DNA from: Aquisalimonas asiatica
GTDB taxonomy: Bacteria > Pseudomonadota > Gammaproteobacteria > Nitrococcales > Aquisalimonadaceae
DNA: 32,000 bases
Assembly: GCF_900110585.1 (NCBI RefSeq)
Contig: NZ_FOEG01000001.1
Location: 219,338-251,337, forward strand
Direction: 5' to 3'
Under the pieces are notes generated by a model. That model saw only the letters and a program-made list of their open reading frames with translations, was not told the origin of the DNA and ran no database searches. Shown in pieces: positions 1,528 through 22,575 of this stretch (the stretch's first letter is position 1; every line of letters begins with the position of its first letter). Both the position numbers and the translations under genes were made by a program.

Positions 1528-3135
1528 ATGGAGCAGCTGGTCCGACGTCTCGGCTTTCGTACCGACCCGACCATCTTCATCGTCTCGGCGGGGTTGACGT
1601 TTCTCTTCGTTGTCGCGCTCGTGGTGGCGCCCGGGCCGATCCGGGATGCCTTCGCCACCGGGCGGGAATGGATCGTTACCAATCTCGGCTGGTTCTTCAT
1701 CTTCGGGGTGAATGCCTGGCTGTTCTTCCTCCTCTGGGTGGCGCTCTCGCGCTTCGGTGATGTGCGGCTGGGGGCGGAGGACGACCGGCCGGAGTACTCC
1801 AACGTCTCGTGGTTCACGATGCTGTTTGCGGGCGGCATCGGCACGGTGCTGATGTTCTGGGGCGTGGCCGAGCCGGTGTTCCATTTCTCCGATCCGCCGC
1901 GGGCCGGGACCGAACCGCACTCCGTGCAGGCGGCCCAGGAGGCCATGGGATTCTCGCTGTACCACCTGGGGCTGCACACCTGGACGATCTTCGCGCTGCC
2001 CGGGCTGGCATTCGCCTACTTCATCCACCGGCACAAGCTGCCCCTGCGGGTGAGCTCGGTGTTCTATCCGCTGCTGGGGGAGAAGGTACGCGGCCCCATC
2101 GGCAAGACCATCGACGTCTTCGCGATCCTCGGCACGCTGTTCGGCGTTGCCGTCTCCATCGGGCTCGGCACCAGCCAGATCAACGCCGGGCTCACCGAGC
2201 TTCTGGGGGTGCCGGATAATGTCGCCTCCAAGGTGGTGATCATTACCGTGCTGACCACCGTCGCGGTGCTGTCCATCGTGGCCGGGCTCGATCGGGGCGT
2301 GAAGCTGCTGTCGAACATCAACATCGGCATGGCCACCGGGCTGATGGTCTTCGTCCTGGTTACCGGCTCCACCCTGTTCCTGCTGCGCGGGATCATCGAA
2401 ACCCTCGGGCTGTATGTCTCGAACATCGTGCCCATGGCGTTCTGGAACGACACCCTGGCGCAGTACACCAGCGAGGACGGCTGGGGCTGGCAGGGGAGCT
2501 GGACGGTGTTCTACTGGGCCTGGACGGTCACCTGGGCGCCCTTCATCGGGATCTTCGTCGCCAAGATCTCGAAAGGGCGGACCATCCGCGAGTTCGTGCT
2601 GGGCGTGCTGTTCGCACCCTCGCTGTTCACGCTGGCGTGGTTTGCCATCTTCGGCTGGTCGGCCATGGAGATCGACGGCATCGGTGCCACCGCGCGTGCA
2701 GCCCTTGGTGATGAGGCCGGCCGCATGACCGACGCCGTGAACCAGAGCGTGCCCCTGGCGATGTTCGCCTTCTTCGAGCACTTCCCGGCCGTGCAGTTCG
2801 TCCAGGGGCTGGCCGTGGTCATCGTGGCGATCTTCTTCGCCACCTCGTCGGACTCCGCCTCTCTGGTGGTCGACATGCTCTGCACCGGCGATGCGCAGTC
2901 GGGCCCGGTGCGCCAGCGGGTCTTCTGGGGCGTGGCCGAAGGGGCCGTGGCCGCCATGCTGATCGTGCTCGCCGGGGAAGCGGGGCTTGAGGCGCTGCAG
3001 CAGGTCATCACGGTGATCGGCCTGCCGATCTTCGTCATGGTGTTCGCGATGGTCTTCGCGCTGTTCAAGGGGTTGCGGGCGGAGAACGTCGGGCGACCCG
3101 ACGTGGGGGCGCCGCCGCGTCTGGACGACATGTAG
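1528..3135 (+). CDS. BCCT-family (betaine/carnitine/choline) transporter
   Basis: The signature WFTMLFAGGIGTVLMFWGVAEP and about 12 hydrophobic segments are present. ATG at 1528 has GAGG 6 nt upstream; the ORF track starts at a GTG at 1501. Confidence 0.9.
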   Translation: MEQLVRRLGFRTDPTIFIVSAGLTFLFVVALVVAPGPIRDAFATGREWIVTNLGWFFIFGVNAWLFFLLWVALSRFGDVRLGAEDDRPEYSNVSWFTMLFAGGIGTVLMFWGVAEPVFHFSDPPRAGTEPHSVQAAQEAMGFSLYHLGLHTWTIFALPGLAFAYFIHRHKLPLRVSSVFYPLLGEKVRGPIGKTIDVFAILGTLFGVAVSIGLGTSQINAGLTELLGVPDNVASKVVIITVLTTVAVLSIVAGLDRGVKLLSNINIGMATGLMVFVLVTGSTLFLLRGIIETLGLYVSNIVPMAFWNDTLAQYTSEDGWGWQGSWTVFYWAWTVTWAPFIGIFVAKISKGRTIREFVLGVLFAPSLFTLAWFAIFGWSAMEIDGIGATARAALGDEAGRMTDAVNQSVPLAMFAFFEHFPAVQFVQGLAVVIVAIFFATSSDSASLVVDMLCTGDAQSGPVRQRVFWGVAEGAVAAMLIVLAGEAGLEALQQVITVIGLPIFVMVFAMVFALFKGLRAENVGRPDVGAPPRLDDM

Positions 3136-3270
3136 CGTTGCCCCCGGCTTTCTGACGCCGTTGCCACAAACCTGACATCTTCACCACAGAAACGTGAAGT
3201 GTGTCCGGGATGCTGCGACGCGGCAATGCGATCCTCCGCGCGTCAATCACAGTCAACCACGGAGGGTCCC

Positions 3271-10157: not shown

Positions 10158-10614
10158 CGGCATCCACCTGTTGTTGCTGCAGCATCCCGGCGATAGCGGC
10201 CTCCAGCTGGCTGACGTGGTCGACCGCCGCCTGGGAATCGCCAATGGTGTGCATGGTCATGGCGTCGTCCGTGATGCGCACGCACAACGTGCCCGGCATG
10301 AGGTTGATGATGTTCGCAAGGAAGATGCGGCTGCCGTTGGGCGGCAGGCGCCAGACGTAGTCCACCAGCGCCGGGGTCAGCCGCCGGCGCGGATTGAGCG
10401 TGCGCCAGGCTGTATCCACGGCGCCCTGTAACGAGAGCTGCAGAAACAGCCCGACGAACCGCAGCAGGCTGGCGGGGTCGAGCCGCCACCGCTGGTTCGG
10501 TTCAAAGGGGTTGAACAGCGCCGCCACGGCAATGGCCGGCAAGCCCCAGAGCCAGGATCCCGTATCGCCCCCGGTCAGCAGCAACCAGATCAGGGCATAG
10601 GTGGCCAGGCGCAT
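10150..10614 (-). CDS. mrpE: Mrp antiporter subunit E, 154 aa
   Basis: WLLLTGG ... ANIINLMPGTLCV resembles the MnhE family. It is the first gene of the cluster. The start was chosen at ATG 10614 (MRLATYALIW) rather than the ORF-track start at 10782. Confidence 0.75.
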   Translation of the reverse strand: MRLATYALIWLLLTGGDTGSWLWGLPAIAVAALFNPFEPNQRWRLDPASLLRFVGLFLQLSLQGAVDTAWRTLNPRRRLTPALVDYVWRLPPNGSRIFLANIINLMPGTLCVRITDDAMTMHTIGDSQAAVDHVSQLEAAIAGMLQQQQVDADD

Positions 10615-10785
10615 GGCCAGGCCGGAACCGCGCGTCTGGGACCGGAGCCAGCCGTTCAGTCGTGTCCGTTGAATGACCGCCCCCGACGTGTTGACTGGAT
10701 GATCAGGCCCGTGTGTCGGGGAAACCATACCGAAAGCCGCGCACCCCGGAAAGGCCGGGCACGCCGGGCGGCCGATGCCCACGGC

Positions 10786-11874
10786 TCAGGCGTGTGATCG
10801 CTCCCGCATCCAGGAGAGGACGCTCGGCCAGAGGTCGCGGTGGGCGCTGGCGCCGACCATCATCCCCACGTGCTGCAACGAGACCCCGGGCTCGTCCTCG
10901 TACCAGAACAGGGCCCGGTCGTCCGTGCCCAGGGCGTCGAGGGCGGGCAGGACCGACGCCGGCGAGGCGATCTCGCACTGGCGGTTCAGCACACAGCCCA
11001 CGGGCGCGCGGATATCGGCCGGGCCGACCGCACGGCCGCCGATGGTGACGCGGCGGGTCAGAAACCCGTCCTGCCGGTAGAGAATGGTGACCAGGTCCGA
11101 GAACAGCTGCCGGGGCATGGCGCTCTCGCCCAGGGTCCAGCGCTCCACCAGCAGGTGGGAGCGCAGCCGGTCGGGATGTCCCAGGGAGGAGAGCCAGTCG
11201 GTGACGCGCTGGTAGACGAACGTCTCCGGCGATGCGGTCACGCCGATCAGGTTCAGCATGGAGCCGGGGATGACGCCGCCCTCTCCGGCGTCGGCGGGGG
11301 TGTCGCTGTAGGAGGCCACCACCCGCGCGAGCGCACCGGTCTGCGGTGCGAAGTGCAGCGGGGCGCCGAGCACCACCAGCCCCCGGACCAGCTCCGGGTG
11401 GCCGGCGGCAAACAGCGCCGCCAGCGTGCCGCCCAGGGAATGGCCGCTGAGGAGGAGCCGGTCCTCGCCGGTGTCCTGCCGGACCGCGTCGACGCAGGCG
11501 CCCAGCATGCGGTCGGCGTAATCCTGAAGGCCCAGGGGGGCGTCCGTCCCGGTGGCGTCCGGCCATTCCACCATGTACACGCGAAAGCCCGCCTCCAGGT
11601 GGCGTTGCACCACGCTGGCGGTGGGGTCCAGGTCCCAGATGTCGGGCGTCTTGATCGGTGCCGGCACCAGCAGGACGGCCGGTCCGTCGGCTGCGGCGCC
11701 CGCGTAGCGGCGCACCGTTGCCCCGGCGGCCGTCTGCAGGTGCTCGTAGGGGCTGCATCGCGGGCCGAAGCCCAGGGCATCACAGATGCCGGCCAGCCAG
11801 CGACGCTGGTGGTCCACGGTGAGTAGCGCCGCGTGCAGCGGGGCGAACGTGCGTTGCGGGGTGTCTTCGATCAC
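10786..11874 (-). CDS. Alpha/beta hydrolase related to class III PHA synthase PhaC, with a Ser nucleophile
   Basis: It is collinear with class III PhaC over most of its length (VYMVEWPD..., LQHVGMMVG His region). The lipase box reads SGHSLGG, where PhaC has G-x-C-x-G-G. The start is GTG at 11874. Confidence 0.7.
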   Translation of the reverse strand: MIEDTPQRTFAPLHAALLTVDHQRRWLAGICDALGFGPRCSPYEHLQTAAGATVRRYAGAAADGPAVLLVPAPIKTPDIWDLDPTASVVQRHLEAGFRVYMVEWPDATGTDAPLGLQDYADRMLGACVDAVRQDTGEDRLLLSGHSLGGTLAALFAAGHPELVRGLVVLGAPLHFAPQTGALARVVASYSDTPADAGEGGVIPGSMLNLIGVTASPETFVYQRVTDWLSSLGHPDRLRSHLLVERWTLGESAMPRQLFSDLVTILYRQDGFLTRRVTIGGRAVGPADIRAPVGCVLNRQCEIASPASVLPALDALGTDDRALFWYEDEPGVSLQHVGMMVGASAHRDLWPSVLSWMRERSHA

Positions 11875-11955
11875 GGCCGTCGACCAGTCCGGGGTGGCAG
11901 GACTAATCCCAACTGTAGCCCAGCGGTGGGACGGCGCCAGTGCCGGAGCCGTGCG

Positions 11956-13578
11956 TTACTGGTTCATGGGCGTGCGGAAGTGCTCGTCGAGGCGCTCCAC
12001 TTCGGTGTCGATGTCTTCGTCCGGCTCCACGTCGCTGCTCTCCAGGCGGTGTTGCGCCGTCGGCAGCCGGATCTCGAACTCCACGCCGTTGATATTGAGC
12101 GGCTCGATGCTGACCCGGTGCGCCTTGCGCCTGGGGGCGTAGTCCAGCCGCCAGTGCGGGCGCTCCGGGTGCGCAGGGTCGAAGTGGCGCTGCTTGCCGC
12201 TGGCGGCGAAGTCGTCCAGGCGCTGGGTGTCGTCACTGTCCTCCGGGGTGATCTCCACGCTTTTCAGTGGAGACGTGAACGTCCACTCCCGGGCGCCGTC
12301 GGGCTCGCCGTCGTGGGTGGTGGTGTCCAGCGTTTCGGTGATCACCTCGCCGTCGTCCAGCTCCAGCCGCACGGTATAGCGCGCGGTCGGGGTTTCGATG
12401 TTGTGCACGTCGATGCGGCCTTCGTAGCCCTTCACGATCTCGCCCACGAAGTACAGCCCCAGCCCGCGGCCGTGGTGTTCGTTGGTGCGGCGCGTGGAGT
12501 AGCCGAGCTGGAAGAGGTTGTCGCGGTCCTCGTCGCGGATGTGCGGGCCGCGGTTGTACACGCGCAGGCAGGCGTGGCCGTGTTCCTCGGTGAGGGTGAG
12601 GGCCACGGGCGCGAACGCCTTCTTGAAGCCGCGCTTGTTGGCGAAGAACTGCGCGTTCTTGAGCAGATTCTCCAGCAGCAGCACCAGGTGGTTCTCGTTG
12701 CCCAGCAGCTCGCCGGCCGGCTCCAGATGCACGGTCCACTTGCTGTCGTGCAGGGTGTAGCCGGTGTCGTCATCGGGGGCGGGCATGGTTTCGTTGCGCA
12801 CCGCGCCGAGCGCCCGCCAGGCGGCGCGCTGAGGCAGATAGGCCGGCTCGTAGGGCAGGGCGGCGTGGTGGTCACCCTGGAGCTCCCGCTGCACGTAGTG
12901 CTCCTCGCACTCGCACAGGTGGTTGCTGATGTGCAGGGCGAGGTTGTCGGCGGTGGAGAGGTCCAGCAGGTCCCAGAGATAGCGCATGGCGTCCAGGGCG
13001 GCTTCGTACTCCGCCTGCCGGGCGGCGGCGTCCGGGGTGTCGCCGCCGGTTGCGTCCAGCGCCGCGCGGTTGGCGGCGGCTGCATGCTGCAGGGCCGTCT
13101 GCACCTTGTCGAAGCTGATCACGCCGTTGTGGCGCACTTCCGCGGCGATGCTCTTGAAGTGCAGAAACTTCTCGTCGTACTCGATGTACTCCAGCAGCTT
13201 GTCGCTGATGAACAGCTTCAGTTTGTCTGCGTGGCCGGAGTAGGTGTGCGCCTTCATCTGCAGCTGCTTCTTGCGCTCCCACAGCGCGTCGAGCTGGTGG
13301 TTGAGGTGCAGCAGATCGGCCTTCTGGCCGGCGTACTGGCGCCGGTAGCGGCGCAGATCGAGGAGCAGCAACAGAATGAACCCGCCCAGCGCTCCGTAGG
13401 CGGCATCCAGCCGCAGCCATTCGCGCGGGATGTCGTAGTAGGTGGCGAGCCAGGGCTCGTTCACCGCCAGCAGGTAGGCGAGCGCAAGAAGGGCGCCCAA
13501 GGCGCTCAGCCACGGGAAAGTGACCTTGGTGATCCGCGTGGTCGGGCGGCTGATGTCGGCGTCGTCGGTGTCGGTCAT
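11956..13578 (-). CDS. Atypical membrane-anchored sensor histidine kinase (GHKL ATPase), 540 aa
   Basis: It has two N-terminal TM helices with almost no periplasmic loop. The N-box is LLENLLKNAQFF and the G2 box is GRGLGLYF, but the G1 position reads YNRGPH instead of DxGxG. About 100-130 extra acidic residues lie near the C-terminus. The start overlaps the response-regulator stop (ATGA). Confidence 0.8.
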   Translation of the reverse strand: MTDTDDADISRPTTRITKVTFPWLSALGALLALAYLLAVNEPWLATYYDIPREWLRLDAAYGALGGFILLLLLDLRRYRRQYAGQKADLLHLNHQLDALWERKKQLQMKAHTYSGHADKLKLFISDKLLEYIEYDEKFLHFKSIAAEVRHNGVISFDKVQTALQHAAAANRAALDATGGDTPDAAARQAEYEAALDAMRYLWDLLDLSTADNLALHISNHLCECEEHYVQRELQGDHHAALPYEPAYLPQRAAWRALGAVRNETMPAPDDDTGYTLHDSKWTVHLEPAGELLGNENHLVLLLENLLKNAQFFANKRGFKKAFAPVALTLTEEHGHACLRVYNRGPHIRDEDRDNLFQLGYSTRRTNEHHGRGLGLYFVGEIVKGYEGRIDVHNIETPTARYTVRLELDDGEVITETLDTTTHDGEPDGAREWTFTSPLKSVEITPEDSDDTQRLDDFAASGKQRHFDPAHPERPHWRLDYAPRRKAHRVSIEPLNINGVEFEIRLPTAQHRLESSDVEPDEDIDTEVERLDEHFRTPMNQ

Positions 13579-14384
13579 GTCTCGGCTCCCTTGACCGGCC
13601 GCCAGCAGTAGGCGCCTTCGTCGCCGAAGGTGACGATCCCTTCGCCGCCGTCGCAGATGGCCTGGAAACGGCCGTCACCGCCCATGGCCTGGTCGAACGC
13701 GCGGCGCAGGGTGCGGATGTGCTGGCGGTAGCTGGCGTAGGAGAAGCGGGCCGTGTCGGTATCCAGATGCTCCGCCATCTGCTCGGTGGTCACGGCGCGG
13801 GGCGAGGCCTCCACCAGATAGCGCAGGATCTTGCGCGGCATGGGCGCGAGCGGGCGTTTCGCATTGGCCGGGTTCATGAGCTTGCTGCCGCGCCAGTACA
13901 CCTCCCAGGTCACGGTATCCAGGGAGAGCTCGCCGCTTTGCAGCACGTCGCCGGACTGCGCCGGGCCGGGCTGGCGCATGTCGCTCTGGCGGAGCGCCGC
14001 CTTGATCCGCCAGCACAGCACCTGCTCCACGTTGCGCTGATGTTTGGCGATGAAATCCCGGGCGCCCGAGGTCTCGAACGCCTGCTCCTCGATGCCGGTG
14101 CCGCTGTGCTCGGAGAGGTAGATGATGGGCAGGTCGGGCCACTTGCGCTGCAGCGCGCGGGATACGGAAAAGCCGGCGGCGTCGTTGCCGTTCATGTTCG
14201 CGTCCAGCAGGGCGAGATCCGGTGCGCCGTCGTCGCCCACCTGGCGGATGTGCTGGCAGGCGGCCTCCGCGAACTTGAACACCTGCACCTCGGTCGGCGC
14301 GGCGTCAAACGCCGTCTCCTCCAGCACCGGCCGGAATCGCTCGATCCAGTGCAGCTGGTCTTCCACCCACAGAATCACCGCCAT
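13575..14384 (-). CDS. OmpR-family response regulator (REC plus winged-helix), 269 aa
   Basis: REC motifs are present: ILWVEDQ, LALLDANM and FIAKH. The C-terminal segment LSLDTVTWEVYWRGSKL...PMPRKILRYLV...HIRTLRRAF is Trans_reg_C-like. The start was chosen at ATG 14384. Confidence 0.85.
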   Translation of the reverse strand: MAVILWVEDQLHWIERFRPVLEETAFDAAPTEVQVFKFAEAACQHIRQVGDDGAPDLALLDANMNGNDAAGFSVSRALQRKWPDLPIIYLSEHSGTGIEEQAFETSGARDFIAKHQRNVEQVLCWRIKAALRQSDMRQPGPAQSGDVLQSGELSLDTVTWEVYWRGSKLMNPANAKRPLAPMPRKILRYLVEASPRAVTTEQMAEHLDTDTARFSYASYRQHIRTLRRAFDQAMGGDGRFQAICDGGEGIVTFGDEGAYCWRPVKGAET

Positions 14385-14481
14385 GGCGCGCCCGTACTCC
14401 CTTGGCAACAGCCCCGCAACGTAGCACGCCGGCAACACCGCCAGACGTGACGGCCATCAACCCTCGCGCATCCCATTCCCG

Positions 14482-14507
14482 GTGAACAGTGTTCACGGAT
14501 TTTTCAC
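14482..14507. promoter_or_regulatory. Candidate response-regulator operator in the divergent promoter region
   Basis: There is a perfect 15-bp palindrome GTGAACAGTGTTCAC (14482-14496). A third TTCAC half-site at 14503-14507 lies 11 bp (one helical turn) after the TTCAC at 14492-14496. Confidence 0.3.
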
Positions 14508-14588
14508 CAGCGCGCGGGAGACTCCACTCAACGCTGAAGACGGGCCCGCCCGTCAGGGGCGCCACTACAACAACCATACAGGCACAGG

Positions 14589-16112
14589 GTGATCATCATG
14601 TTGGCTGACATACTCTACATCTGGTCGGATTCGCCGGGGCTGTCACTGGCCATCTGGCTCGTGATCGGCATAACCGTGTTGTACCTGGGGCGCCCCCACG
14701 CCCACCACGTGCTGCGTGGAACCGGGCGGGCCATCGACGGCGCCCTGCGACTGGCCGCCGCCAGCCTGCGGCAGCTCGAGAAGCGGGTGGCGAAGCGCAA
14801 CCGCGACGTGCTCCTGGCCGTGGGCCGGGAAGAGGCCGAGAAGGCCATCGAGCGGGAGTTCACCCGCGTCAACGCCATCGTCGAGCGCGAGCTCAGCCAC
14901 TACCCGGCGCTGCACCGCAAGCTCGCCGAGACCATCGAGAAGATCGAGGGCGACTACCAGGCCTCCACCGATCAGGCGCCGTTGCCGCCGGACTGGTCCG
15001 AGCTCACGTCTACCATCTCCTCGCTGCCCAGCTCCGGCGATCCGGCCGTGGGCAAGATCCTGGAGAACATTCGCGAGGCCGTGGAGAACTCCCACAAGGA
15101 GACGCTCAAGGCCTACCAGAAGAGCGTGAACGAGCGCCACAAGATCCTGCACGGCATGCAGGGCGACTGGCGCACGGTGAGCACCACCATGGACAAGGTG
15201 CAGACCACCATCACCGGCCTGGAAGAGCGCGCCGCGGCCATCGACCGCCACATGGCCAACTACGAGGCAATGCGCCGGGAAGACGACAAGGCCGTGCACG
15301 CGCTCACGGCGTCGTCGGTGACGCAGTTCTTCATCGCCTCCCTGGTGCTGGTGATCGCCGCCTTCGGCGGCCTCATCAACTTCCACCTGATCGCGCTGCC
15401 CATGTCCGAGATGGTGGGCGGGGCGGCCTACATCGGCTCCATGCGCGTGTCCGACATCGCCGCGCTGGTGATCATCATGGTGGAGATCTCCATGGGGATA
15501 TTCCTGCTGGAGGCGCTGCAGATCACCAAGCTGTTCCCCATGATCGGCCGCATGGACGACCGCATGCGCAAGCGCATGGCCATCGCCGCGTTCACCATCC
15601 TGTTCATCTTCGCCAGCATCGAGGCCTCGCTCGCCTACATGCGGGACCTGCTGGTGATGGATCAGCAGGCGCTGACCCAGTCCCTCGCGGGCGGTGCGGC
15701 TGCCGAGGCGCAGTTCCGCTGGATTCCGTCGGTGGCGCAGCTTCTGCTCGGGTTCATCCTGCCGTTCGCGCTGGCCTTCGTCGCCATCCCGCTGGAGGCG
15801 TTCATCAACTCCCTCCGCACGGTCCTCGGGCTGCTGGTGCTGGGCGTGGTGCGTGTGCTGCCGGTGGTAGTGCGGCTCGCCGGCGGCGTGGCCAGCCACC
15901 TGAGCAAGGTGCTCGTGAGCCTCTACGACCTGCTGATCATGCTGCCGCTCAGCATCGAGCGGATGATCGCCCACCGCCGTGAAACCGCCCATGCGGTGGA
16001 CGAGGACGACACCGACGCGGACACCCCCGCGAAACCGAAGACCAAGCGCCGCCGCCGCGCCAGCAGCGATGCCGACACGGACGACACCCAGCTCACCGAA
16101 CGGGAGGCCTGA
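14589..16112 (+). CDS. Multi-pass membrane protein with a long N-terminal coiled-coil-like cytoplasmic region; function unknown
   Basis: The 507-aa ORF has coding-like composition. It has one N-terminal TM, about 200 aa of charged helical sequence, at least 5 TM segments, and a K/R- then D-rich tail. The start is GTG at 14589 or ATG at 14598. Confidence 0.75.
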   Translation: MIIMLADILYIWSDSPGLSLAIWLVIGITVLYLGRPHAHHVLRGTGRAIDGALRLAAASLRQLEKRVAKRNRDVLLAVGREEAEKAIEREFTRVNAIVERELSHYPALHRKLAETIEKIEGDYQASTDQAPLPPDWSELTSTISSLPSSGDPAVGKILENIREAVENSHKETLKAYQKSVNERHKILHGMQGDWRTVSTTMDKVQTTITGLEERAAAIDRHMANYEAMRREDDKAVHALTASSVTQFFIASLVLVIAAFGGLINFHLIALPMSEMVGGAAYIGSMRVSDIAALVIIMVEISMGIFLLEALQITKLFPMIGRMDDRMRKRMAIAAFTILFIFASIEASLAYMRDLLVMDQQALTQSLAGGAAAEAQFRWIPSVAQLLLGFILPFALAFVAIPLEAFINSLRTVLGLLVLGVVRVLPVVVRLAGGVASHLSKVLVSLYDLLIMLPLSIERMIAHRRETAHAVDEDDTDADTPAKPKTKRRRRASSDADTDDTQLTEREA

Positions 16113-16115
16113 GCC

Positions 16116-16835
16116 ATGCTGACCAACACCAACCAGACGCAGACCGCATCCACCACCCGGCCCAACGCCCGCCGCACGCGGCGGGGCCTGGCCCTGGCCT
16201 TCTGTGCCGCCGTCGCCACCGCGCTGAGCGGCTGCGGCGACCCGGCCAACAACAGCCGCGCCGCCTTCGTGCTGGTGGATATCTCCGAGAACTACGCCAG
16301 CGAGATGGAGAAGGCCCGCACGCTCACCAACCACCTGCTCGCGCAGATGGAGAGCGGCGATTCCCTGGCCATCGGCTTCATCGATAACAGCAGCTACTCC
16401 GAGCGCAACATCATCGCCAGCGCCGAGTTCGACCACCGGCCGAGCGTCGCTACCCAGCAGAAGCGGGAAGTGCGCGCCGACCTGGATGCCTTCCTGGAGC
16501 GCTTCCGCGTGCCCAGTGCGCACAGCGACATCACCGGCGGCGTGTTCCTGGCGCGGGACTTCCTCAACGAGGCCAACGCCGGCGAGCGTCAGCTCTACAT
16601 GGTCTCCGACCTGAACGAAGACCTCATGCCCGACCTCAAGCGCGACATCCCCCTGAACCTCAAGGGTGTCGACGTGGTGGCCGTGAACGTCACCCGCATG
16701 AGCGGCGACAACCACGACCCGCGCGCCTACGAGCGTCGCCTCGCCGACTGGCAGGAGCGCATCGAGTCCGGCGGCGGCCAGTGGCGCGTGGCCAACAACC
16801 TGGCACGGCTCGAGGTCGTGACCGCACAACAGTAA
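16116..16835 (+). CDS. Lipoprotein with a VWA-like (variant MIDAS) fold
   Basis: The lipobox is LSGC. FVLVDISEN, SDITGG and YMVSDLNED are spaced like VWA MIDAS elements. GGGAGG lies 8 nt upstream, and the start is 3 nt after the upstream stop. Confidence 0.7.
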   Translation: MLTNTNQTQTASTTRPNARRTRRGLALAFCAAVATALSGCGDPANNSRAAFVLVDISENYASEMEKARTLTNHLLAQMESGDSLAIGFIDNSSYSERNIIASAEFDHRPSVATQQKREVRADLDAFLERFRVPSAHSDITGGVFLARDFLNEANAGERQLYMVSDLNEDLMPDLKRDIPLNLKGVDVVAVNVTRMSGDNHDPRAYERRLADWQERIESGGGQWRVANNLARLEVVTAQQ

Positions 16836-16852
16836 GCAACAGTGGCGAGGCT

Positions 16853-17566
16853 ATGAGCGCACGCAACTACCTCCTGGTCCCAGGCGCCTGGACGGGCGCC
16901 TGGGTCTGGCATTACGTCGAACAGGCGCTGCGCGCACGGAGGCAGAACGCACGCTCCATGACACTCTCCGGCCTGGAAACGCTGGATGGCGACGTCTCCG
17001 CCATCCGGCTCAGCACCCATGTGCAGGAGGTGATGCAGTACATCCACGAGCGCGACCTGCAGGACGTGATCCTCGTGGGCCACGGCTACGGCGGGTTGGT
17101 GATCGGCCAGGTGGCCGACCTCCAGCGCGAGCGCATCGCCCACACCGTGTACGTGGACGCCAGCCTCCCGCGCGACAGGCACTCCATGGTCGACACCATC
17201 GGCCTCGACCCCGCGCACGAAGCCCGGCGCATCAGCGCCAACAACGGCCGCTGGCCCGCACCGGACGCGGAGGCCCTGCAGCAGGAGGCGGGCCTCTCCA
17301 CGGAGCACGCCCGGTTCCTCAGCGAACGGCTCGTGGGCCACCCGGGCCACGCCGTCACCGACCCGGCCGTGCTCGACCGGCCCCTGCACCATCAGGCCGG
17401 GACGGTCATCACCAGCGACACCGCAACCACGCCGGACCACCCCAACCACTGGCGCACCTACCACCTGGACGCCGGCCCCTGGCCCATGCTCTCAGCCCCG
17501 CTGGAGCTAACCTCCCTCCTCACACACCGCAGTGCCGGGCCGGAAGCCGCCTGCAAAGCAGGGTAG
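16853..17566 (+). CDS. Alpha/beta hydrolase (SABP2/methylesterase-like) lacking the nucleophile serine
   Basis: YLLVPGAWTGAWVW and ILVGHGYGG align with the HGxxHGxWxW and VGHSxGG motifs of the family. The nucleophile codon is GGC (Gly) at 17084-17086. Confidence 0.75.
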   Translation: MSARNYLLVPGAWTGAWVWHYVEQALRARRQNARSMTLSGLETLDGDVSAIRLSTHVQEVMQYIHERDLQDVILVGHGYGGLVIGQVADLQRERIAHTVYVDASLPRDRHSMVDTIGLDPAHEARRISANNGRWPAPDAEALQQEAGLSTEHARFLSERLVGHPGHAVTDPAVLDRPLHHQAGTVITSDTATTPDHPNHWRTYHLDAGPWPMLSAPLELTSLLTHRSAGPEAACKAG

Positions 17567-17798
17567 GCCCCGGCGCAAAGCAGCCTCCAAAACACCTGTT
17601 TGGCCCATGGTGCATTCTCCGGTAATGTCTCCAATAGGCAACGCTGGCGGGGCTCGCCATGGAAGCCATTACAAACAGGGGTGAGCCCCGGCTCGTGAAT
17701 AAGAATATTCGGTGGACGACCCTACCTATCCCTACAAGAGTGCGCGAACTGATCATGTCATCGAAAGCTGACAGACAGGAGCAAAACAACATGGTATT

Positions 17799-17862
17799 AC
17801 TGCGAAGCAGCCGCGACTGCGACATAACGAAGTTGATGTCGCAGTCGCGGCTGCTTCGCAGT
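17799..17862. repeat. Perfect 27-bp-stem hairpin with a 10-nt loop
   Basis: ACTGCGAAGCAGCCGCGACTGCGACAT (17799-17825) is the exact reverse complement of 17836-17862. The loop is AACGAAGTTG. Confidence 0.9.
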
Positions 17863-17924
17863 GTCGGTGCTTTTCTCCGCTGTCGTCTTCCGAGCCAAGA
17901 TGGATTGGCTCAAGGATAATTTTG

Positions 17925-18054
17925 GCCTAACTAGCCGTTCGAGCACCACGCCTCGTAGATGGCATTTTGAAGGTGTACCCCGAGGGGCGATTTTGTTGCT
18001 TTTTTTGGTGAGTACTGGAATACGGGCGCGTTGCTCAACTTGCTTACGTTATGC
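17925..18054 (+). repeat. attC-like site 0
   Basis: R'' is GCCTAAC (17925-17931), a perfect RYYYAAC. L'' 17937-17952 pairs with L' 18025-18039 at 13 of 15 positions with one bulged C (17940). R' is GTTATGC (18048-18054). Confidence 0.6.
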
Positions 18055-18086
18055 GCTGGTACGTAATTTGATCTGGAGTCCTGCGG

Positions 18087-18827
18087 ATGGAAGAGATGTT
18101 GAGGACGATTGATAAAAGGCGGGCCCTAGAACTTGAGTTGATACCGGCGCGGCTCGCAAACGTAGTTCGTGTTAAACACGGGTTGCTCGATGGAAACACT
18201 CGTTCAGACTTGGAGGCCGCACAGCACTTGGGGTTAAGCGAGGCCAGCTTTAAGGGGCTCCTGTACGAGGCTTACTCCCAGATCAGGGCCCTTCAAGGAG
18301 TACTACCAGTCCCAGAACTTGAGCGCCGACCTCCTACGAAGGTGTTTGTTTCGTACTCGTGGGACTCCGAAGAACACAAAGCCTGGGTCAGATGGGTTTC
18401 TGAGCGGCTTGTATTTAATGGTCTGCAGGTTCTGCTAGACCAATGGGATATGCACCCTGGCGTAAGTTTCACACAGTTTATGGAGCAGAGTATTGCGAAC
18501 GCGGACTTTGTCTTATGCGTTTTTACGCCCTCTTATGCGGAAAAGGCGAACAATAGGCAGAGTATTTCCGGTACGGGCTACGAGCAGCAAATCGTTTCAG
18601 GGCAGATAATGTCCGGAGCACCTAGGTCCAAGTTTGTTCCGATACTTAGAGCGGGAACCTATCAAGCGGGTAGGGAGTGCGCTATACCAACCCATTTTAT
18701 GGGGGTTGTGTGTGAAGATTTTAGAAGTGACGAGGATTTTGAGGTTTCTTTAGAATCCTTGCTCAGGATGCTTTATGGCAAGCCGAAATACATGCCTCCC
18801 CAGATAGGTGTCGAGCCAACACTTTAG
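18087..18827 (+). CDS. Sigma-70 region-4-like HTH fused to a TIR/SEFIR-superfamily domain, 246 aa
   Basis: The N-terminal segment LIPARLANVVRVKHGLLDGNTRSDLEAAQHLGLSEASFKGLLYEAYSQIRAL aligns with the sigma70 r4 pattern. The C-terminal segment KVFVSYSWDSEEHKAWVRWVSERLVFNGLQVLLDQWDMHPG...ADFVLCVFTPSYAEKA...GYEQQ is a typical bacterial TIR/SEFIR core with a candidate catalytic Glu. GGAG lies 8 nt upstream of the ATG. Confidence 0.85.
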   Translation: MEEMLRTIDKRRALELELIPARLANVVRVKHGLLDGNTRSDLEAAQHLGLSEASFKGLLYEAYSQIRALQGVLPVPELERRPPTKVFVSYSWDSEEHKAWVRWVSERLVFNGLQVLLDQWDMHPGVSFTQFMEQSIANADFVLCVFTPSYAEKANNRQSISGTGYEQQIVSGQIMSGAPRSKFVPILRAGTYQAGRECAIPTHFMGVVCEDFRSDEDFEVSLESLLRMLYGKPKYMPPQIGVEPTL

Positions 18828-18907
18828 CATAACAACAACATCGAGTCCGACGGCTCACCCTTACGCTGCGCGCCAGGGCAAGCCGCGGCTCATGTGGAGC
18901 GTTATGG
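18827..18907 (+). repeat. attC site 1 (81 bp)
   Basis: R'' GCATAAC starts on the last base of the TAG stop. L'' 18838-18854 pairs 14/14 with L' 18882-18895, leaving three single-base bulges, all on the L'' side. R' is GTTATGG (18901-18907). R'' is the exact reverse complement of GTTATGC at the cassette start (18048-18054). Confidence 0.75.
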
Positions 18908-18945
18908 CGCTTGGGATAGTCAGCAGATGAGATGAGGAGGCGAAA

Positions 18946-19164
18946 ATGCACAGATTCATTATCAACAAGAATCAGCAGGCCAATGGCGATCACGAGGTTC
19001 ACAATGCGACCACGGATTGTTCATATATGCCGAATCCTGAGAACCGAATAGACATGGGCTATCACGCGTCATGCCATGGGGCGGTTGCTGAGGCTAAACG
19101 CCGCTGGCCAGGGAACAGAATTAACGGCTGCTACTATTGTGCTAATGCATGTCATACAAGCTAG
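18946..19164 (+). CDS. Small Cys/His-rich protein (putative metal-binding), 72 aa, function unknown
   Basis: A strong SD (GAGGAGG) lies 6 nt upstream. The motifs are GDHEVH...C...C-H...GCYYCANACH. I recognise it only as a recurrent small hypothetical family. Confidence 0.75.
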   Translation: MHRFIINKNQQANGDHEVHNATTDCSYMPNPENRIDMGYHASCHGAVAEAKRRWPGNRINGCYYCANACHTS

Positions 19165-19166
19165 CA

Positions 19167-19314
19167 CCATAACAAGGCAATCAAGTTCGCTCCCTGCGGT
19201 CGCCGGATGACCTTGCCCGGCTGCCTTCGGGAAACTGGCCGCATGAACGTGTCCAATTCAGCCGGGCAAGGTCACTGGCGCTCCAATGCCGGCCGGTTAA
19301 GCTGAGCGTTAGAA
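19167..19314 (+). repeat. attC-like site 2 (long; 3' boundary ambiguous)
   Basis: R'' CCATAAC (19167-19173) is the exact reverse complement of GTTATGG at the cassette start. There is a central perfect 16-bp stem (19208-19223 / 19259-19274). R' candidates are GTTAAGC (19296-19302) and GTTAGAA (19308-19314). The L''/L' pairing is weak. Confidence 0.45.
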
Positions 19315-19352
19315 ATATGGACGTGCATCAGTTCTAATTCCTAGAAATATTA

Positions 19353-19382
19353 TTAATTTGTGGTGTGAGGTTGACCTATAAT
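19353..19382 (+). promoter_or_regulatory. Possible cassette-internal promoter
   Basis: A consensus -10 TATAAT lies at 19377-19382, about 50 nt upstream of the 19433 ATG. Only a weak -35 (TTAATT, about 18 nt upstream) is present; the TTGACC at 19371-19376 is too close to serve as -35. Confidence 0.2.
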
Positions 19383-19432
19383 TCTTGCGTCTTAGTGAGT
19401 GATTTGAGAGATAGAATTTTCGATGGTGGCGT

Positions 19433-20377
19433 ATGAATAATATTGATTGGTTGACTGTTGTTCCCTCTGCGATGTCTGCAATAGCCGCAGTTGCTGCCGC
19501 TTATGCTGCATTTGTCGCACTCCGTGTTAGCCGGAAAGCGAACTATTTGTCTGAGAAAAGTATATTAGCAGCTCATCATAGTGATGCCGCATGTGTGCTT
19601 TCAAGTTCAATTGATAGGCTCAAAAAAGAAACAAAAGATTTATCGGAATGTTCATATCGATTATGGGTAGATTGGTCTAGAGAGATTGAATCAAAAGACG
19701 ATCGCCGAAATGGAGGGTCAAATCCTAGACCTTTACGGCATGTTCTGACAAATGGGAGTGAAATGCTAGTGGCGCATGGCACGCTAAATGGAAAACGGTA
19801 TAGGCATGCGCAACGATCAATGTTCTCTATTGTTAGAGATGGCGTAAGCGGGTTAGATGGTAATGAATACAACGGGTTACTCCAAAAGGCGGACGGCACA
19901 TATGGTGATTTTGAAAGCACTTTTGGTTTGCCGCCGATAAATCGAAAAATCGGTGAAGCAAAAGCCTTTAGATGGGTTCTTTATCAGTTAGCAAGGAGGG
20001 TTAATCACAATGATTGGCTTGAAATCTGGAAAAGAGCGTGGCTAGATGATGGCTGGATTGTCAAATACCGACGTGAATTTTCGAAAGTGAAACCAGTTCT
20101 GGAAGAAGTGCATGACTCGCTGAAAGTGGAAAAAAAGAAAGTGACTTACAGCGTGATTCCTCTGGAGTCCAACGCCATGCTGCATAGAAAATATGAAATG
20201 CTATTATCAGAAGTGGAGATTCTTCTGGATGATTGCAGTTTGGATTCATTGGAGATATATCGCGATTGGGAATATGCCGAAGATGTTAGTCAATTGGTTC
20301 TCTATTCGATGGGGGTGGCGAATTTGGTGGGGAAGATTTTAGATTCGATCTATTCGGGAAGTGATCTGGATAGGTGA
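19433..20377 (+). CDS. Membrane-anchored protein (one N-terminal TM helix), 314 aa, no recognisable domain
   Basis: It is the only long ORF in an AT-rich stretch, which makes a spurious ORF unlikely. The TM helix is VVPSAMSAIAAVAAAYAAFVAL, and the remainder is hydrophilic and K/E/D/W-rich. Confidence 0.75.
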   Translation: MNNIDWLTVVPSAMSAIAAVAAAYAAFVALRVSRKANYLSEKSILAAHHSDAACVLSSSIDRLKKETKDLSECSYRLWVDWSREIESKDDRRNGGSNPRPLRHVLTNGSEMLVAHGTLNGKRYRHAQRSMFSIVRDGVSGLDGNEYNGLLQKADGTYGDFESTFGLPPINRKIGEAKAFRWVLYQLARRVNHNDWLEIWKRAWLDDGWIVKYRREFSKVKPVLEEVHDSLKVEKKKVTYSVIPLESNAMLHRKYEMLLSEVEILLDDCSLDSLEIYRDWEYAEDVSQLVLYSMGVANLVGKILDSIYSGSDLDR

Positions 20378-20378
20378 T

Positions 20379-20531
20379 TTCTAGTAAGCGCACGTTTTCG
20401 GAATGGTTTTTAGATGTGATATTGCCCAGAGAAATTGGGCACATTCATATGGCCAGGTTCCCAAAGCCGGCCGGCAAAGGCAGGCGAGATCAGGGTGGAG
20501 GCTGAGCAGCAAAAGAAAGCCTTGGTTAGGA
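20379..20531 (+). repeat. Degenerate attC-like site 3
   Basis: TTCTAGT (20379-20385), 1 nt after the stop, matches 5 of 7 positions of TTCTAAC, the complement expected from cassette start GTTAGAA. The right arm shares GCCGGCCGG...GCTGAGC...GTTAG(G/A)A with attC-2. R' is GTTAGGA at 20525-20531. Confidence 0.3.
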
Positions 20532-20965
20532 AAGGTGGCGTGAAGAAGAAGTAAGGGAAAAGATACTGAGTGCGTGGTTCGAGCCGCGCACATATGAGTA
20601 CGTACCTGTCAGCGCATTCGTGGGTTTCGAAAAGCAGGCCCGGCTAAACAGAGAATTGGTTTTTGCACTTGATCGTCGAGGTGACGGGCATCGGGTAGAG
20701 AATTCGGCGTTGGGCGCGCTCCCACAGATTGAGCGATTGTGCCAGAGCCTTTCTGAGATAGGGCGCTTCACGCAAGTAGTCAAACACGGAGGTTGTGATC
20801 GAGGCATCTACATCTAGATGTGGAGTCTTGGTTTCCTTGCCACGGAATCTGTGCACTGGGACGCAATTGCTACCAGTGGCTTCAAGGCGGCGTCATTCCT
20901 GATTTGCCCCAAGGTGGGTCAATTAGGCTTGTCCGTTGATGTTGGTTCTGTTTGGGAGGGATATA

Positions 20966-21274
20966 ATGAAAGCATCGGTTTTTCTCGTTCTGTTGTTGAG
21001 TTTTCTGTTTATTGGTCCAGCCAACGGGGGCGATCTTAAGTCAGTATCTGCAGCTGGAGGACTAGAAGAAGTCGGTTTGCTAGAAATTACGGCCCCGACT
21101 GTCGACAGTCCCTGTGCTGGCGAAGAGATTAGCGATTCCGTCCTGTTTGAAGGCGACCAGTTGTTAGCACAGCGCTGCTGCAGGATATGTAGAAGGGGTA
21201 AGGCTTGCGGGGATACTTGCATCAACCGCAACTACACTTGCACGCGACCGCCCGGTTGTGCGTGTAATGGCTGA
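20966..21274 (+). CDS. Small secreted Cys-rich protein, 102 aa
   Basis: GGGAGGG lies 6 nt upstream of ATG 20966. The signal peptide is MKASVFLVLLLSFLFIGPANG. The C-terminus CCRICRRGKACGDTCINRNYTCTRPPGCAC has 9 Cys in 30 aa. Confidence 0.7.
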   Translation: MKASVFLVLLLSFLFIGPANGGDLKSVSAAGGLEEVGLLEITAPTVDSPCAGEEISDSVLFEGDQLLAQRCCRICRRGKACGDTCINRNYTCTRPPGCACNG

Positions 21275-21393
21275 CTTAGCGCTCGGGTAATGTGGTATCT
21301 ACGGGAGTGAACGGATTCGCTCCTCGTTTAGTAGCCTGCCGATCTACGTTTTTTCCGTGTGTCATCAAGGACTCCTCCACGCAGCCTTCCTGG

Positions 21394-22575
21394 TCAGTTC
21401 TGCCCCAACCCCAACAACTTCGGCCGCTCCCCCTGCGTCTGCCAGCGCCACAGCCACTCCAGCGGGCCCTGCCGGAATACCGCCAGCCACAGGGCGCTGA
21501 ACAGCAGTTGGGCGAGGAAGACGCCGCCGGCGATGGTCACCGCGGTGGTCAGCGAGATTTCGGCGAAGAGGTTCAGGCCGAAGCCGTAGAAGAGCGGCAC
21601 ACAGATCACGGACTGGCCGACGTAGTTGGTCAGCGCCATGCGTCCGGCCGGGGCCATGAACGCACGGGTTGCCCGGGCGAGGATGTTGCCGCTGTAGCCC
21701 CAGAAGAGGAGCAGCAGGCCGGCGTAGCCGATGGCCATCAGCGGCGGCGAGGCGATCTCGGCGGCGATCTGCCCCGGGTGCTCGGGTGCCAGATTGGCGA
21801 TCATGCCGTGCTCCACCAGGGCGAGCGGGAATCCGATGGCAAGGCCGGCCAGGGCGGTTGCGAGCAGCGGCCAGCGGTACGTGCCGATGGACTCCACCAG
21901 CTGCATCCGCGCGGCGGCCGCGCCCAGCAGGAACAGCGCCATCACCTTCACTCCCCGCAGTGACTCCAGCCGCTCCAGCGCCGTGGCGACGCTCAGCTCC
22001 ACGTTGGCCTTGACCACATCGACGAAGCTGCCCCCGGAGAGGTGGTGGATGTTATCCCCCAGCCGGTGGGCGCCCATGGTCTCGTACGGGCCGGGGATGT
22101 CCAGGCCGAGCCAGTACCACCGCGCCGCGATGGTGGCACCAAGCAGTGCGACGCCCCAGAGAATGAGCGTCAGCGGCCGGCAGTTGAGGAATGGGGTGAG
22201 CAGGAACCCGACCAGCGCGTAGAGGGTCAGTATGTCCCAGGGCCAGAAGAGCACGCTGTGGGCGGCGCCGAACGCCAGCAGCCCGATCATGCGGCGGCGG
22301 TGGAACGCCGGGCCGCCAGCGCCCATGCGGCTGGCGAGCATCACGAAGCTGTAGCCGAACAGCAGTGAGAACAGGCCGTAGAACTTGCCCTCGAAGAAGA
22401 GGTGCATGATGGCCTCGGTGAGCGGGTCGTTGCCCGCGCCGGGCAGGGCCTCCCGTTCGCCGGGGCCGAGGTAGCCCCAGCCGGAGAACATCTGGATGTT
22501 CACCACGAGGATGCCCAGCAGGGCGAATCCGCGCAGTGCATCCAGCGAAGCGAGGCGTTCGCTCTGACGGCCCAT
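21394..22575 (-). CDS. DUF418/YeiB-like multi-pass membrane protein
   Basis: The N-terminus RLASLDALRGFALLGILVVN is characteristic of the DUF418/DUF1624 family. The protein has about 10 TM segments. Confidence 0.8.
   Translation of the reverse strand: MGRQSERLASLDALRGFALLGILVVNIQMFSGWGYLGPGEREALPGAGNDPLTEAIMHLFFEGKFYGLFSLLFGYSFVMLASRMGAGGPAFHRRRMIGLLAFGAAHSVLFWPWDILTLYALVGFLLTPFLNCRPLTLILWGVALLGATIAARWYWLGLDIPGPYETMGAHRLGDNIHHLSGGSFVDVVKANVELSVATALERLESLRGVKVMALFLLGAAAARMQLVESIGTYRWPLLATALAGLAIGFPLALVEHGMIANLAPEHPGQIAAEIASPPLMAIGYAGLLLLFWGYSGNILARATRAFMAPAGRMALTNYVGQSVICVPLFYGFGLNLFAEISLTTAVTIAGGVFLAQLLFSALWLAVFRQGPLEWLWRWQTQGERPKLLGLGQN

Follow-up and report, generated by a model that had tools for sequence, protein, structure and literature searches.

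A small, partly decayed integron cassette array in Aquisalimonas asiatica very probably represents a cluster of attC sites lacking an integrase

Clusters of attC sites lacking an integrase (CALINs) are defined as groups of at least two attC recombination sites, on a single strand and separated by less than 4 kb, in whose vicinity there is no integron integrase gene (intI), and 279 such clusters were found in 2484 genomes (PMC4889954). IntegronFinder, the program used in that work, keeps attC sites with E < 1 and clusters sites less than 4 kb apart; insertion of cassettes at secondary sites is one published origin of CALINs (PMC4889954). Partial or total loss of attC sites forms fused cassettes (PMC4670013), and integron cassettes with phage defense functions have already been described (bioRxiv 10.1101/2024.07.02.601719). 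Here we analyze a 32,000-nucleotide (nt) stretch of the Aquisalimonas asiatica genome (contig NZ_FOEG01000001.1, positions 219,338 to 251,337), termed the window, in which an earlier note made from the letters alone had proposed attC sites without an integrase. A. asiatica is a salt-lake bacterium placed in the Ectothiorhodospiraceae. Our data indicate that this chromosomal region is very probably a small, partly decayed integron cassette cluster without an integrase, that is, a CALIN. A literature search for published work combining Aquisalimonas and integrons found nothing.

The array contains only two intact attC sites, attC-0 and attC-1, which lie on the same strand at a distance of 773 nt and flank a cassette encoding a SEFIR-domain protein. 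The 81-nt attC-1 (18827-18907, + strand), identified by covariance models and folding, consists of R'' GCATAAC (18827-18833), spacer AACAAC, L stem, spacer GGAGC, and R' GTTATGG (18901-18907), with the crossover between G18901 and T18902. Its bottom strand forms a canonical attC hairpin (-22.7 kcal/mol, z -4.5, equaled by 0 of 200 shuffles) with a 7-bp R box, unpaired spacers of 6 and 5 nt, and three extrahelical bases (top-strand C16, T20 and A24) that reside on the L'' side only. The earlier note had described this architecture, and its R boxes, spacers and L''-side bulges stand, but the stem contains 15 Watson-Crick pairs rather than the 14 reported, or 21 if the inner extension, which includes two G-T pairs, is added. 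The 130-nt attC-0 (17925-18054, + strand), identified by covariance models and with its crossover between G18048 and T18049, comprises R'' GCCTAAC (17925-17931), a 5-nt spacer TAGCC, L'' GTT[C]GAGCA, and R' GTTATGC (18048-18054). This layout parallels the aadA1 site (GTCTAAC / AATTC / GTT[C]AAGCC). The RYYYAAC motif, the L stem paired at 13 of 15 positions and the single bulged C (C16) are all present in attC-0 as had been proposed. Both sites carry the R'' (RYYYAAC) and R' (GTTRRRY) ends, with the conserved AAC and GTT kept.

Because integron recombination cuts within GTT, the start of a cassette should complement the R'' of its own attC, and two consecutive units had been claimed to obey this rule at 7 of 7 positions. 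Both units are found in the sequence, and the complementarity takes in four non-consensus positions in each (ATGC/GCAT and ATGG/CCAT). Every motif lies where the earlier note placed it, including the G of GCATAAC that serves as the last base of a TAG stop codon, and the cassette open reading frames (ORFs) begin 38 and 44 nt past the cassette starts. The R'' of the third site, CCATAAC (19167-19173), is likewise present 2 nt past an ORF stop, but the site to which it belongs is not an intact attC.

Covariance models were built from attC sites outside the window. The 59-base element of aadA1 was confirmed in 2515 plasmids, and 19 attC sites were read off plasmid class 1 integron arrays with annotated intI1, arrays that themselves follow the circularization rule. 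Model R1 was made from 16 aligned class 1 attC sites with 7 R-box and 8 L-box pairs, with the estX, qnrVC1 and dfrA14 sites held out, whereas model R2 contains 32 sites, including four from environmental arrays. R1 and R2 are our own models and not those of IntegronFinder. Both found both sites on the + strand, at full length and with ends exactly as proposed earlier: attC-1 scored 34.2 bits with R1 (E = 1.4e-6) and 36.2 bits with R2 (E = 2.3e-6), or E of about 2e-6, and attC-0 scored 15.6 bits with R1 (E = 0.081) and 16.7 bits with R2 (E = 0.084). The held-out true sites scored 17.1 (qnrVC1), 15.4 (estX) and 11.1 (dfrA14) bits with R1; thus, attC-0 falls within the range of genuine divergent sites. 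With all filters off, other R1 matches in the window had E >= 3.4 and were all outside the island that holds the array, and R2 gave no match at E <= 5 in approximately 124 kb of unrelated control loci. A search of the whole window with Rfam at the gathering threshold returned nothing, including no attC family.

Cassette boundaries were independently revealed by comparison with unrelated arrays. Cassette 2 (18902..19308, + strand; ORF 18946-19164) encodes a Cys/His-rich protein of 72 amino acids (aa) whose closest relatives are found in metagenomic scaffold L020, an array with at least six covariance-model matches, and in Aliidiomarina sanyensis (L021). Aligned sequences of the window, L020 and L021 are unrelated upstream and roughly 90-97% identical exactly from GTTATGG through the ORF into the attC. 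This homology breakpoint is the predicted G/TT crossover, and the neighbors of the cassette in L020 and L021 are unrelated. Cassette 3 (19309..20449, + strand; ORF 19433-20377) encodes a 314-aa protein with an N-terminal membrane helix that is 100% identical to an A. asiatica hypothetical protein and has 61 homologs. In the L026-28 loci, an 85%-identical relative is followed by a canonical 72-nt attC (R2 21.1 bits, E = 0.004), and the R'' of the L026 site, TTCTAAC, is the exact complement of the start of cassette 3 in the window, GTTAGAA. A 59%-identical relative of the SEFIR gene of cassette 1 ends in the same GCATAAC in locus L030, with GTTATGC and a model-supported attC upstream, and a sister genome (L007) lacks all of the island genes at this position. 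The loci L020/L021, L026-28 and L030, together with the sister locus, show that the cassettes are mobile units and that the ORFs do not travel as a fixed block. The earlier note had named two outcomes that would refute it, namely no significant covariance-model match for either site and a constant, cassette-independent gene order at orthologous loci; both checks came out in its favor, and its observation is confirmed.

Cassette 1 (18049..18901, + strand; 853 bp) is the only unit between two intact attC sites. Its ORF (18087-18827) encodes a 246-aa protein, 100% identical to an A. asiatica TIR-domain protein, with a helix-turn-helix (HTH)-like N-terminus of about 80 aa followed by a SEFIR/TIR domain. 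Matches were obtained to Pfam TIR_2 (1.7e-20) and SEFIR (5e-11), to the PADLOC bSEFIR profile (4.2e-61), and to the SEFIR domain of PDB entry 5Y8E (5.3e-21). The single-gene anti-phage system bSEFIR of Millman et al. was selected by an N-terminal SEFIR domain (bioRxiv 10.1101/2022.05.11.491447). The cassette 1 protein shares its SEFIR/TIR-like domain, and the window gene resides on a mobile element; however, the domain of the validated bSEFIR protein is N-terminal whereas that of the window protein follows the HTH-like N-terminus. In place of an N-terminal SEFIR domain and a near full-length match to the PADLOC profile, we found the domain at residues 80-244 of 246 and a match to profile positions 37-195 of 412. 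Judged by these sequence matches, an anti-phage role for the cassette 1 protein is plausible.

No integrase accompanies the array. A Phage_integrase Pfam domain was absent from all of approximately 30 window genes, where real genes were chosen by their pattern of GC content at third codon positions (GC3), and tblastn of IntI1 against the 32 kb gave nothing better than E = 0.22, with no integrase remnant. The absence of intI from the window that had been claimed earlier is therefore borne out by both searches. Window genes encode a BCCT transporter, a methyl-accepting chemotaxis protein, an Mrp antiporter, a two-component system, hydrolases and a DUF418 protein, as well as a beta-lactamase-like protein, DeoR, EutBC and an ABC transporter, all of which are housekeeping functions. 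Rather than the intI, attI and Pc promoter that stand upstream of the first cassette in a complete integron, the first cassette here is preceded by a hydrolase gene and starts at its stop codon. With two model-supported attC sites 773 nt apart on one strand and no intI in the window, where a CALIN calls for none within 4 kb, the CALIN interpretation is supported.

The whole cassette array occupies a low-GC island (17563..21393, + strand) delimited by the composition profile and by blastn against the sister locus L007, which derives from Aquisalimonas sp. APHAB1-3 and is syntenic with the window. This locus was obtained by a scan of genome contigs with DUF418, which yielded four distant relatives and one syntenic sister genome. 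The GC content of the island is 43-56%, compared with 64-74% for the chromosome, and the GC trough coincides with the island limits. Identity between the window and L007 is 96.4% over 11964-17562 and 95.5% over 21394-21526, and nothing between these segments matches. The island is 3831 bp long and extends from stop codon to stop codon, filling the gap between two convergent core genes. To the left is an alpha/beta-hydrolase gene (16781..17566, + strand; Abhydrolase_6, Pfam E = 1.3e-10) whose product is 93.5% identical to its L007 ortholog, and to the right a gene for a DUF418 membrane protein (21394..22575, - strand; Pfam E = 7e-36), at whose stop codon L007 homology resumes. Ordinary core genes syntenic with L007 make up the 17.5 kb upstream and 10.6 kb downstream of the island. 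A megablast search of the island against plasmids gave no match.

In L007, the same slot contains an unrelated insert of 2781 bp (10280-13060) with a HigB/HigA-like toxin-antitoxin pair, an IS605-family TnpB and a transposase fragment. The L007 DUF418 gene is partly deleted and synteny is gone past that point. The slot between the hydrolase and DUF418 genes is an insertion hot spot. We considered whether the L007 insert might be an alternative cassette array and rejected this idea because no attC was found in it.

The left junction was resolved to the base. The last base common to L007 is G17562, and the island opens with GTAGGC, which agrees at 5 of 6 positions with the cassette start TTAGGC predicted from the attC-0 R'' (GCCTAAC). 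The island supplies 17563-17566, which form the last base of the hydrolase's final Gly codon and the TAG stop that follows it. The single mismatch changes this codon from GGT to GGG, a synonymous difference that fits the genome GC3 of about 0.9.

Two further sites in the array have decayed. The 148-nt attC-2 (19167..19314, + strand; R'' CCATAAC, R' GTTAGAA at 19308-19314) is rearranged. Over its first 41 nt (19167-19207), it agrees at 41/41 positions with the canonical 78-nt attC that this cassette carries in L020 and L021, which reads CCATAAC AAGGC AAT[C]AAG ... CTTATT GCTAGC GTTAGCA. The remainder (19208-19314) is not co-linear with this sibling, with a 3' arm bearing only a weak likeness to the original (equaled by 4 of 1000 shuffles), and a perfect 16-bp inverted repeat (19208-19223 / 19259-19274) with a 35-nt loop starts exactly where sibling identity stops. 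L-box pairing is reduced to 3/6, versus 6/6 in the sibling, for which R1 gives 18.5 bits and R2 28.9 bits in L020. The attC-3 relic (20379..20449, + strand), recognized by alignment to the L026 attC, retains a homologous 5' arm. Its R'' has changed from TTCTAAC to TTCTAGT, its 3' half has diverged (putative R' ATTCATA), and it forms no hairpin. Neither attC-2 nor attC-3 is matched by R1 or R2 at E <= 10. As these two sites are not intact, the array is decaying, and damage to them leaves the 72-aa and 314-aa genes effectively fixed in place.

Short similarities occur around the decayed sites. The 14-mer CCAAWGCCGGCCGG is found at 19283-19296 and again at 20461-20474, just past the attC-3 relic (2 of 500 shuffles as good). 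Since this 14-mer is all that they have in common, we no longer take 19208-19314 and 20420-20510 to be copies of a single element. In a separate example of attC disruption, the Klebsiella plasmid pHK31_1 (L014 6510-7950) carries ISKpn4, an IS110-family insertion sequence (IS), inside the qacL attC, with the other half of the site approximately 1.4 kb downstream. Insertion into attC is a known habit of attC-targeting IS elements.

Several observations weigh against the CALIN interpretation or the details of its history. E-values are rough owing to a shortened calibration, which leaves bit scores and exact ends unaffected, and the E of about 0.08 for attC-0 is marginal with a small, class-1-biased model. 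The overall fold of attC-0 is no better than that of shuffled sequences (z -0.27), an unremarkable folding energy explained by its unstructured loop of approximately 60 nt. In the independent Logan assembly, made from the same reads, the sequence is interrupted within the loop of the attC-2 inverted repeat, where two pieces overlap by 25 nt (L001 stops at 19252 and L002 begins at 19228). The join within attC-2 rests on the reference assembly. The left junction fits the prediction at 5/6 bases and not 6/6, the integrase search covered the 32-kb window, and the lack of a right-end attC remnant, together with foreign DNA in the sister slot, means that a clean secondary-site insertion cannot be reconstructed.

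The following course of events would account for the locus. The bottom strands of attC-0 and attC-1 can fold into the R-box/spacer/L-box hairpins that are recognized by integron integrases and cut between G and TT. Most likely, an integrase encoded elsewhere inserted cassette DNA at a secondary G/TT-type site overlapping the hydrolase stop codon, and we read the left junction as the scar of that insertion. We hold this step with confidence only slightly better than even because the right end lacks an attC remnant and because homologous recombination may also exchange the contents of this insertion hot spot. Subsequent decay would have replaced or rearranged the 3' half of attC-2 and removed AAC and GTT core bases from attC-3. 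Judging from the structures of attC-0 and attC-1, both sites are predicted to remain competent for recombination and for mobilization in trans, in which case an IntI supplied in trans could excise cassette 1 as an 853-bp circle and insert it at an attI. With no Pc promoter present, the cassettes would have to be expressed by read-through from the hydrolase gene or from internal promoters. A simple scan of the island for promoters and terminators was at chance level, and read-through from the co-directional hydrolase gene is the route that we infer.

The best surviving alternative concerns delivery. The block may have been assembled in another host and have arrived by homologous recombination through the flanking genes, as an allelic replacement at the hot spot and with no insertion by an integrase in this lineage, a scenario that we regard as a serious minority possibility. 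In its favor, each island limit falls where a conserved convergent gene ends, a different insert of 2.8 kb occupies the same slot in the sister genome, and neither an attC nor a target remnant was seen at the right end. Nonetheless, the left end keeps 5/6 of the G/TT crossover signature, which must stem from integrase action at this hydrolase stop codon in some ancestor. Allelic replacement would therefore alter the delivery route and not the nature of the element.

It is improbable that the array is instead the distal part of a complete integron whose intI and attI lie outside the 32 kb or were split off by rearrangement. The integrase search extended only as far as the window, half of CALINs occur in genomes encoding IntI, and some arise by splitting of integrons (PMC4889954). 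However, no spare sequence separates the first cassette from the conserved core gene beside it, L007 homology runs up to 17562, the island begins with a predicted cassette 5' end, and the syntenic core genes on both flanks include no integrase. Direct contact between the array and a core gene makes loss of an adjacent intI unlikely. Finally, a reading of the palindromes as terminators or repetitive extragenic palindromic (REP)-like hairpins with 7/7 complements arising by chance is effectively refuted: complementary 7-mers no more than about 1 kb apart are by themselves not rare, attC-0 folds like shuffled sequence and hairpins in the terminator scan are at chance level, but the covariance-model matches have exact ends, extrahelical bases are confined to the L'' side, the stems are not followed by a T-run, and identical cassettes with the same boundaries appear in unrelated arrays, as the alignment of the window with L020 and L021 demonstrates.

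The remaining parts of the island are less informative. Cassette 0 (17563..18048, + strand), delimited by sequence and junction alignment, probably lacks an ORF, as its 86-aa reading frame (17659-17919) has no family match and an implausible sequence. Within it, a repeat search detected a perfect 27-bp inverted repeat with a 10-nt loop (17799..17862, no strand assigned) and a DNA fold of -39.9 kcal/mol (z -13.7). Searching the island with Rfam at an E-value threshold gave only sub-threshold, miRNA-like hairpin noise on this palindrome. One arm of the palindrome has the same sequence as a 19-mer, coding for GRSRDCDI, that high-GC bacteria very commonly carry in FHA-type genes. When metagenomes were scanned with one arm, at least 120 contigs were retrieved, all of which contain this coding k-mer in FHA-type genes and none of which is palindromic. 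A 21-nt direct repeat of 76% identity (17554-17574 / 17672-17692), the first copy of which spans the hydrolase/island junction, may be due to chance or to a duplicated junction.

The 72-aa protein of cassette 2 is a member of a very conserved family without a name (65-96% identity), whose 310 clusters come from highly diverse bacteria. Members span the Gamma-, Beta-, Delta- and Epsilonproteobacteria and are found as an integron cassette as well as on other mobile elements. Integron specificity of the family was rejected, as Xanthomonas and Vibrio copies lie on other mobile elements without attC. In Xanthomonas, the gene is situated two genes upstream of a gene for a DUF4062 protein, a domain recently renamed as NADase. 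Scaffold L020 also holds three related, ORF-less cassettes of approximately 290 nt (1418-1713, 2559-2837 and 2893-3182), each with its own attC.

Downstream of the attC-3 relic, the island remainder (20450..21393, + strand) contains an ORF of about 102 aa (20966-21274), which the ORF tool had extended to an upstream TTG (20936-21274, 112 aa). The predicted product has a signal peptide and a Cys-rich C-terminal motif, CCRICRRGKACGDTCINRNYTCTRPPGCACNG, and the gene is preceded by a GGGAGG ribosome-binding site. It has no family match and is followed by no attC; indeed, neither R1 nor R2 detected an attC on either strand of 20450-21393.

The locus is a real but ordinary case of a well-described element type. 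CALINs are common and defense cassettes have been described before, and the value of this one is as a well-resolved example, with an exact insertion point, cross-genome proof of boundaries, and intact and decayed attC sites side by side. It adds one more CALIN from an under-studied halophile of the Ectothiorhodospiraceae and confirms that attC sites and cassette boundaries can be recognized by reading raw sequence. The only cassette predicted to be still mobilizable carries a SEFIR-type putative defense gene, which fits, and leaves unchanged, the view of integron cassettes as a reservoir of phage defense. On a more speculative reading that we consider doubtful, the locus could be a snapshot of cassette domestication, in which integrase-driven insertion at a stop codon was followed by non-integrase events, namely the substitution of a palindrome-bearing segment for half of one attC and point loss of AAC/GTT, that froze two genes while a single short HTH-SEFIR defense cassette, possibly with a new minimal SEFIR architecture, stayed mobilizable in trans. 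If this were so, read-through could express cassettes placed inside the stop codon of a core gene.

Set against known systems, the window array most resembles CALINs (Cury et al. 2016, PMC4889954), with which it shares same-strand attC sites, promoterless cassettes of unknown or non-resistance functions, and the absence of intI or an intI pseudogene within 10 kb. It is also small, like the 83% of CALINs with fewer than six sites (PMC4889954). Its sites resemble those of the class 1 cassettes aadA1, aacA4 and blaOXA-1 in the succession of R'' RYYYAAC, a 5-6 nt spacer, xxT[C]RAG with extrahelical C16, a variable loop, L', a spacer and R' GTTRRRY, but attC-1 differs in having three extrahelical bases and attC-0 in its long unstructured loop. 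Unlike class 1 integrons, the window has no intI1, attI1, Pc promoter, 3' conserved segment or resistance genes. Loss of pairing or core bases in attC-2 and attC-3 recalls fused or fixed cassettes (PMC4670013) and decaying sedentary-integron arrays of Xanthomonas (10.1101/2025.06.18.660453). In contrast to the fused and fixed cassettes (PMC4670013), attC-2 is not a simple deletion, as its 5' 41 nt are intact and its 3' half has been replaced. Relative to CALINs generally, the A. asiatica array is distinguished by the survival of two of four sites in intact form and by a core-gene slot and stop-codon junction that have both been worked out.

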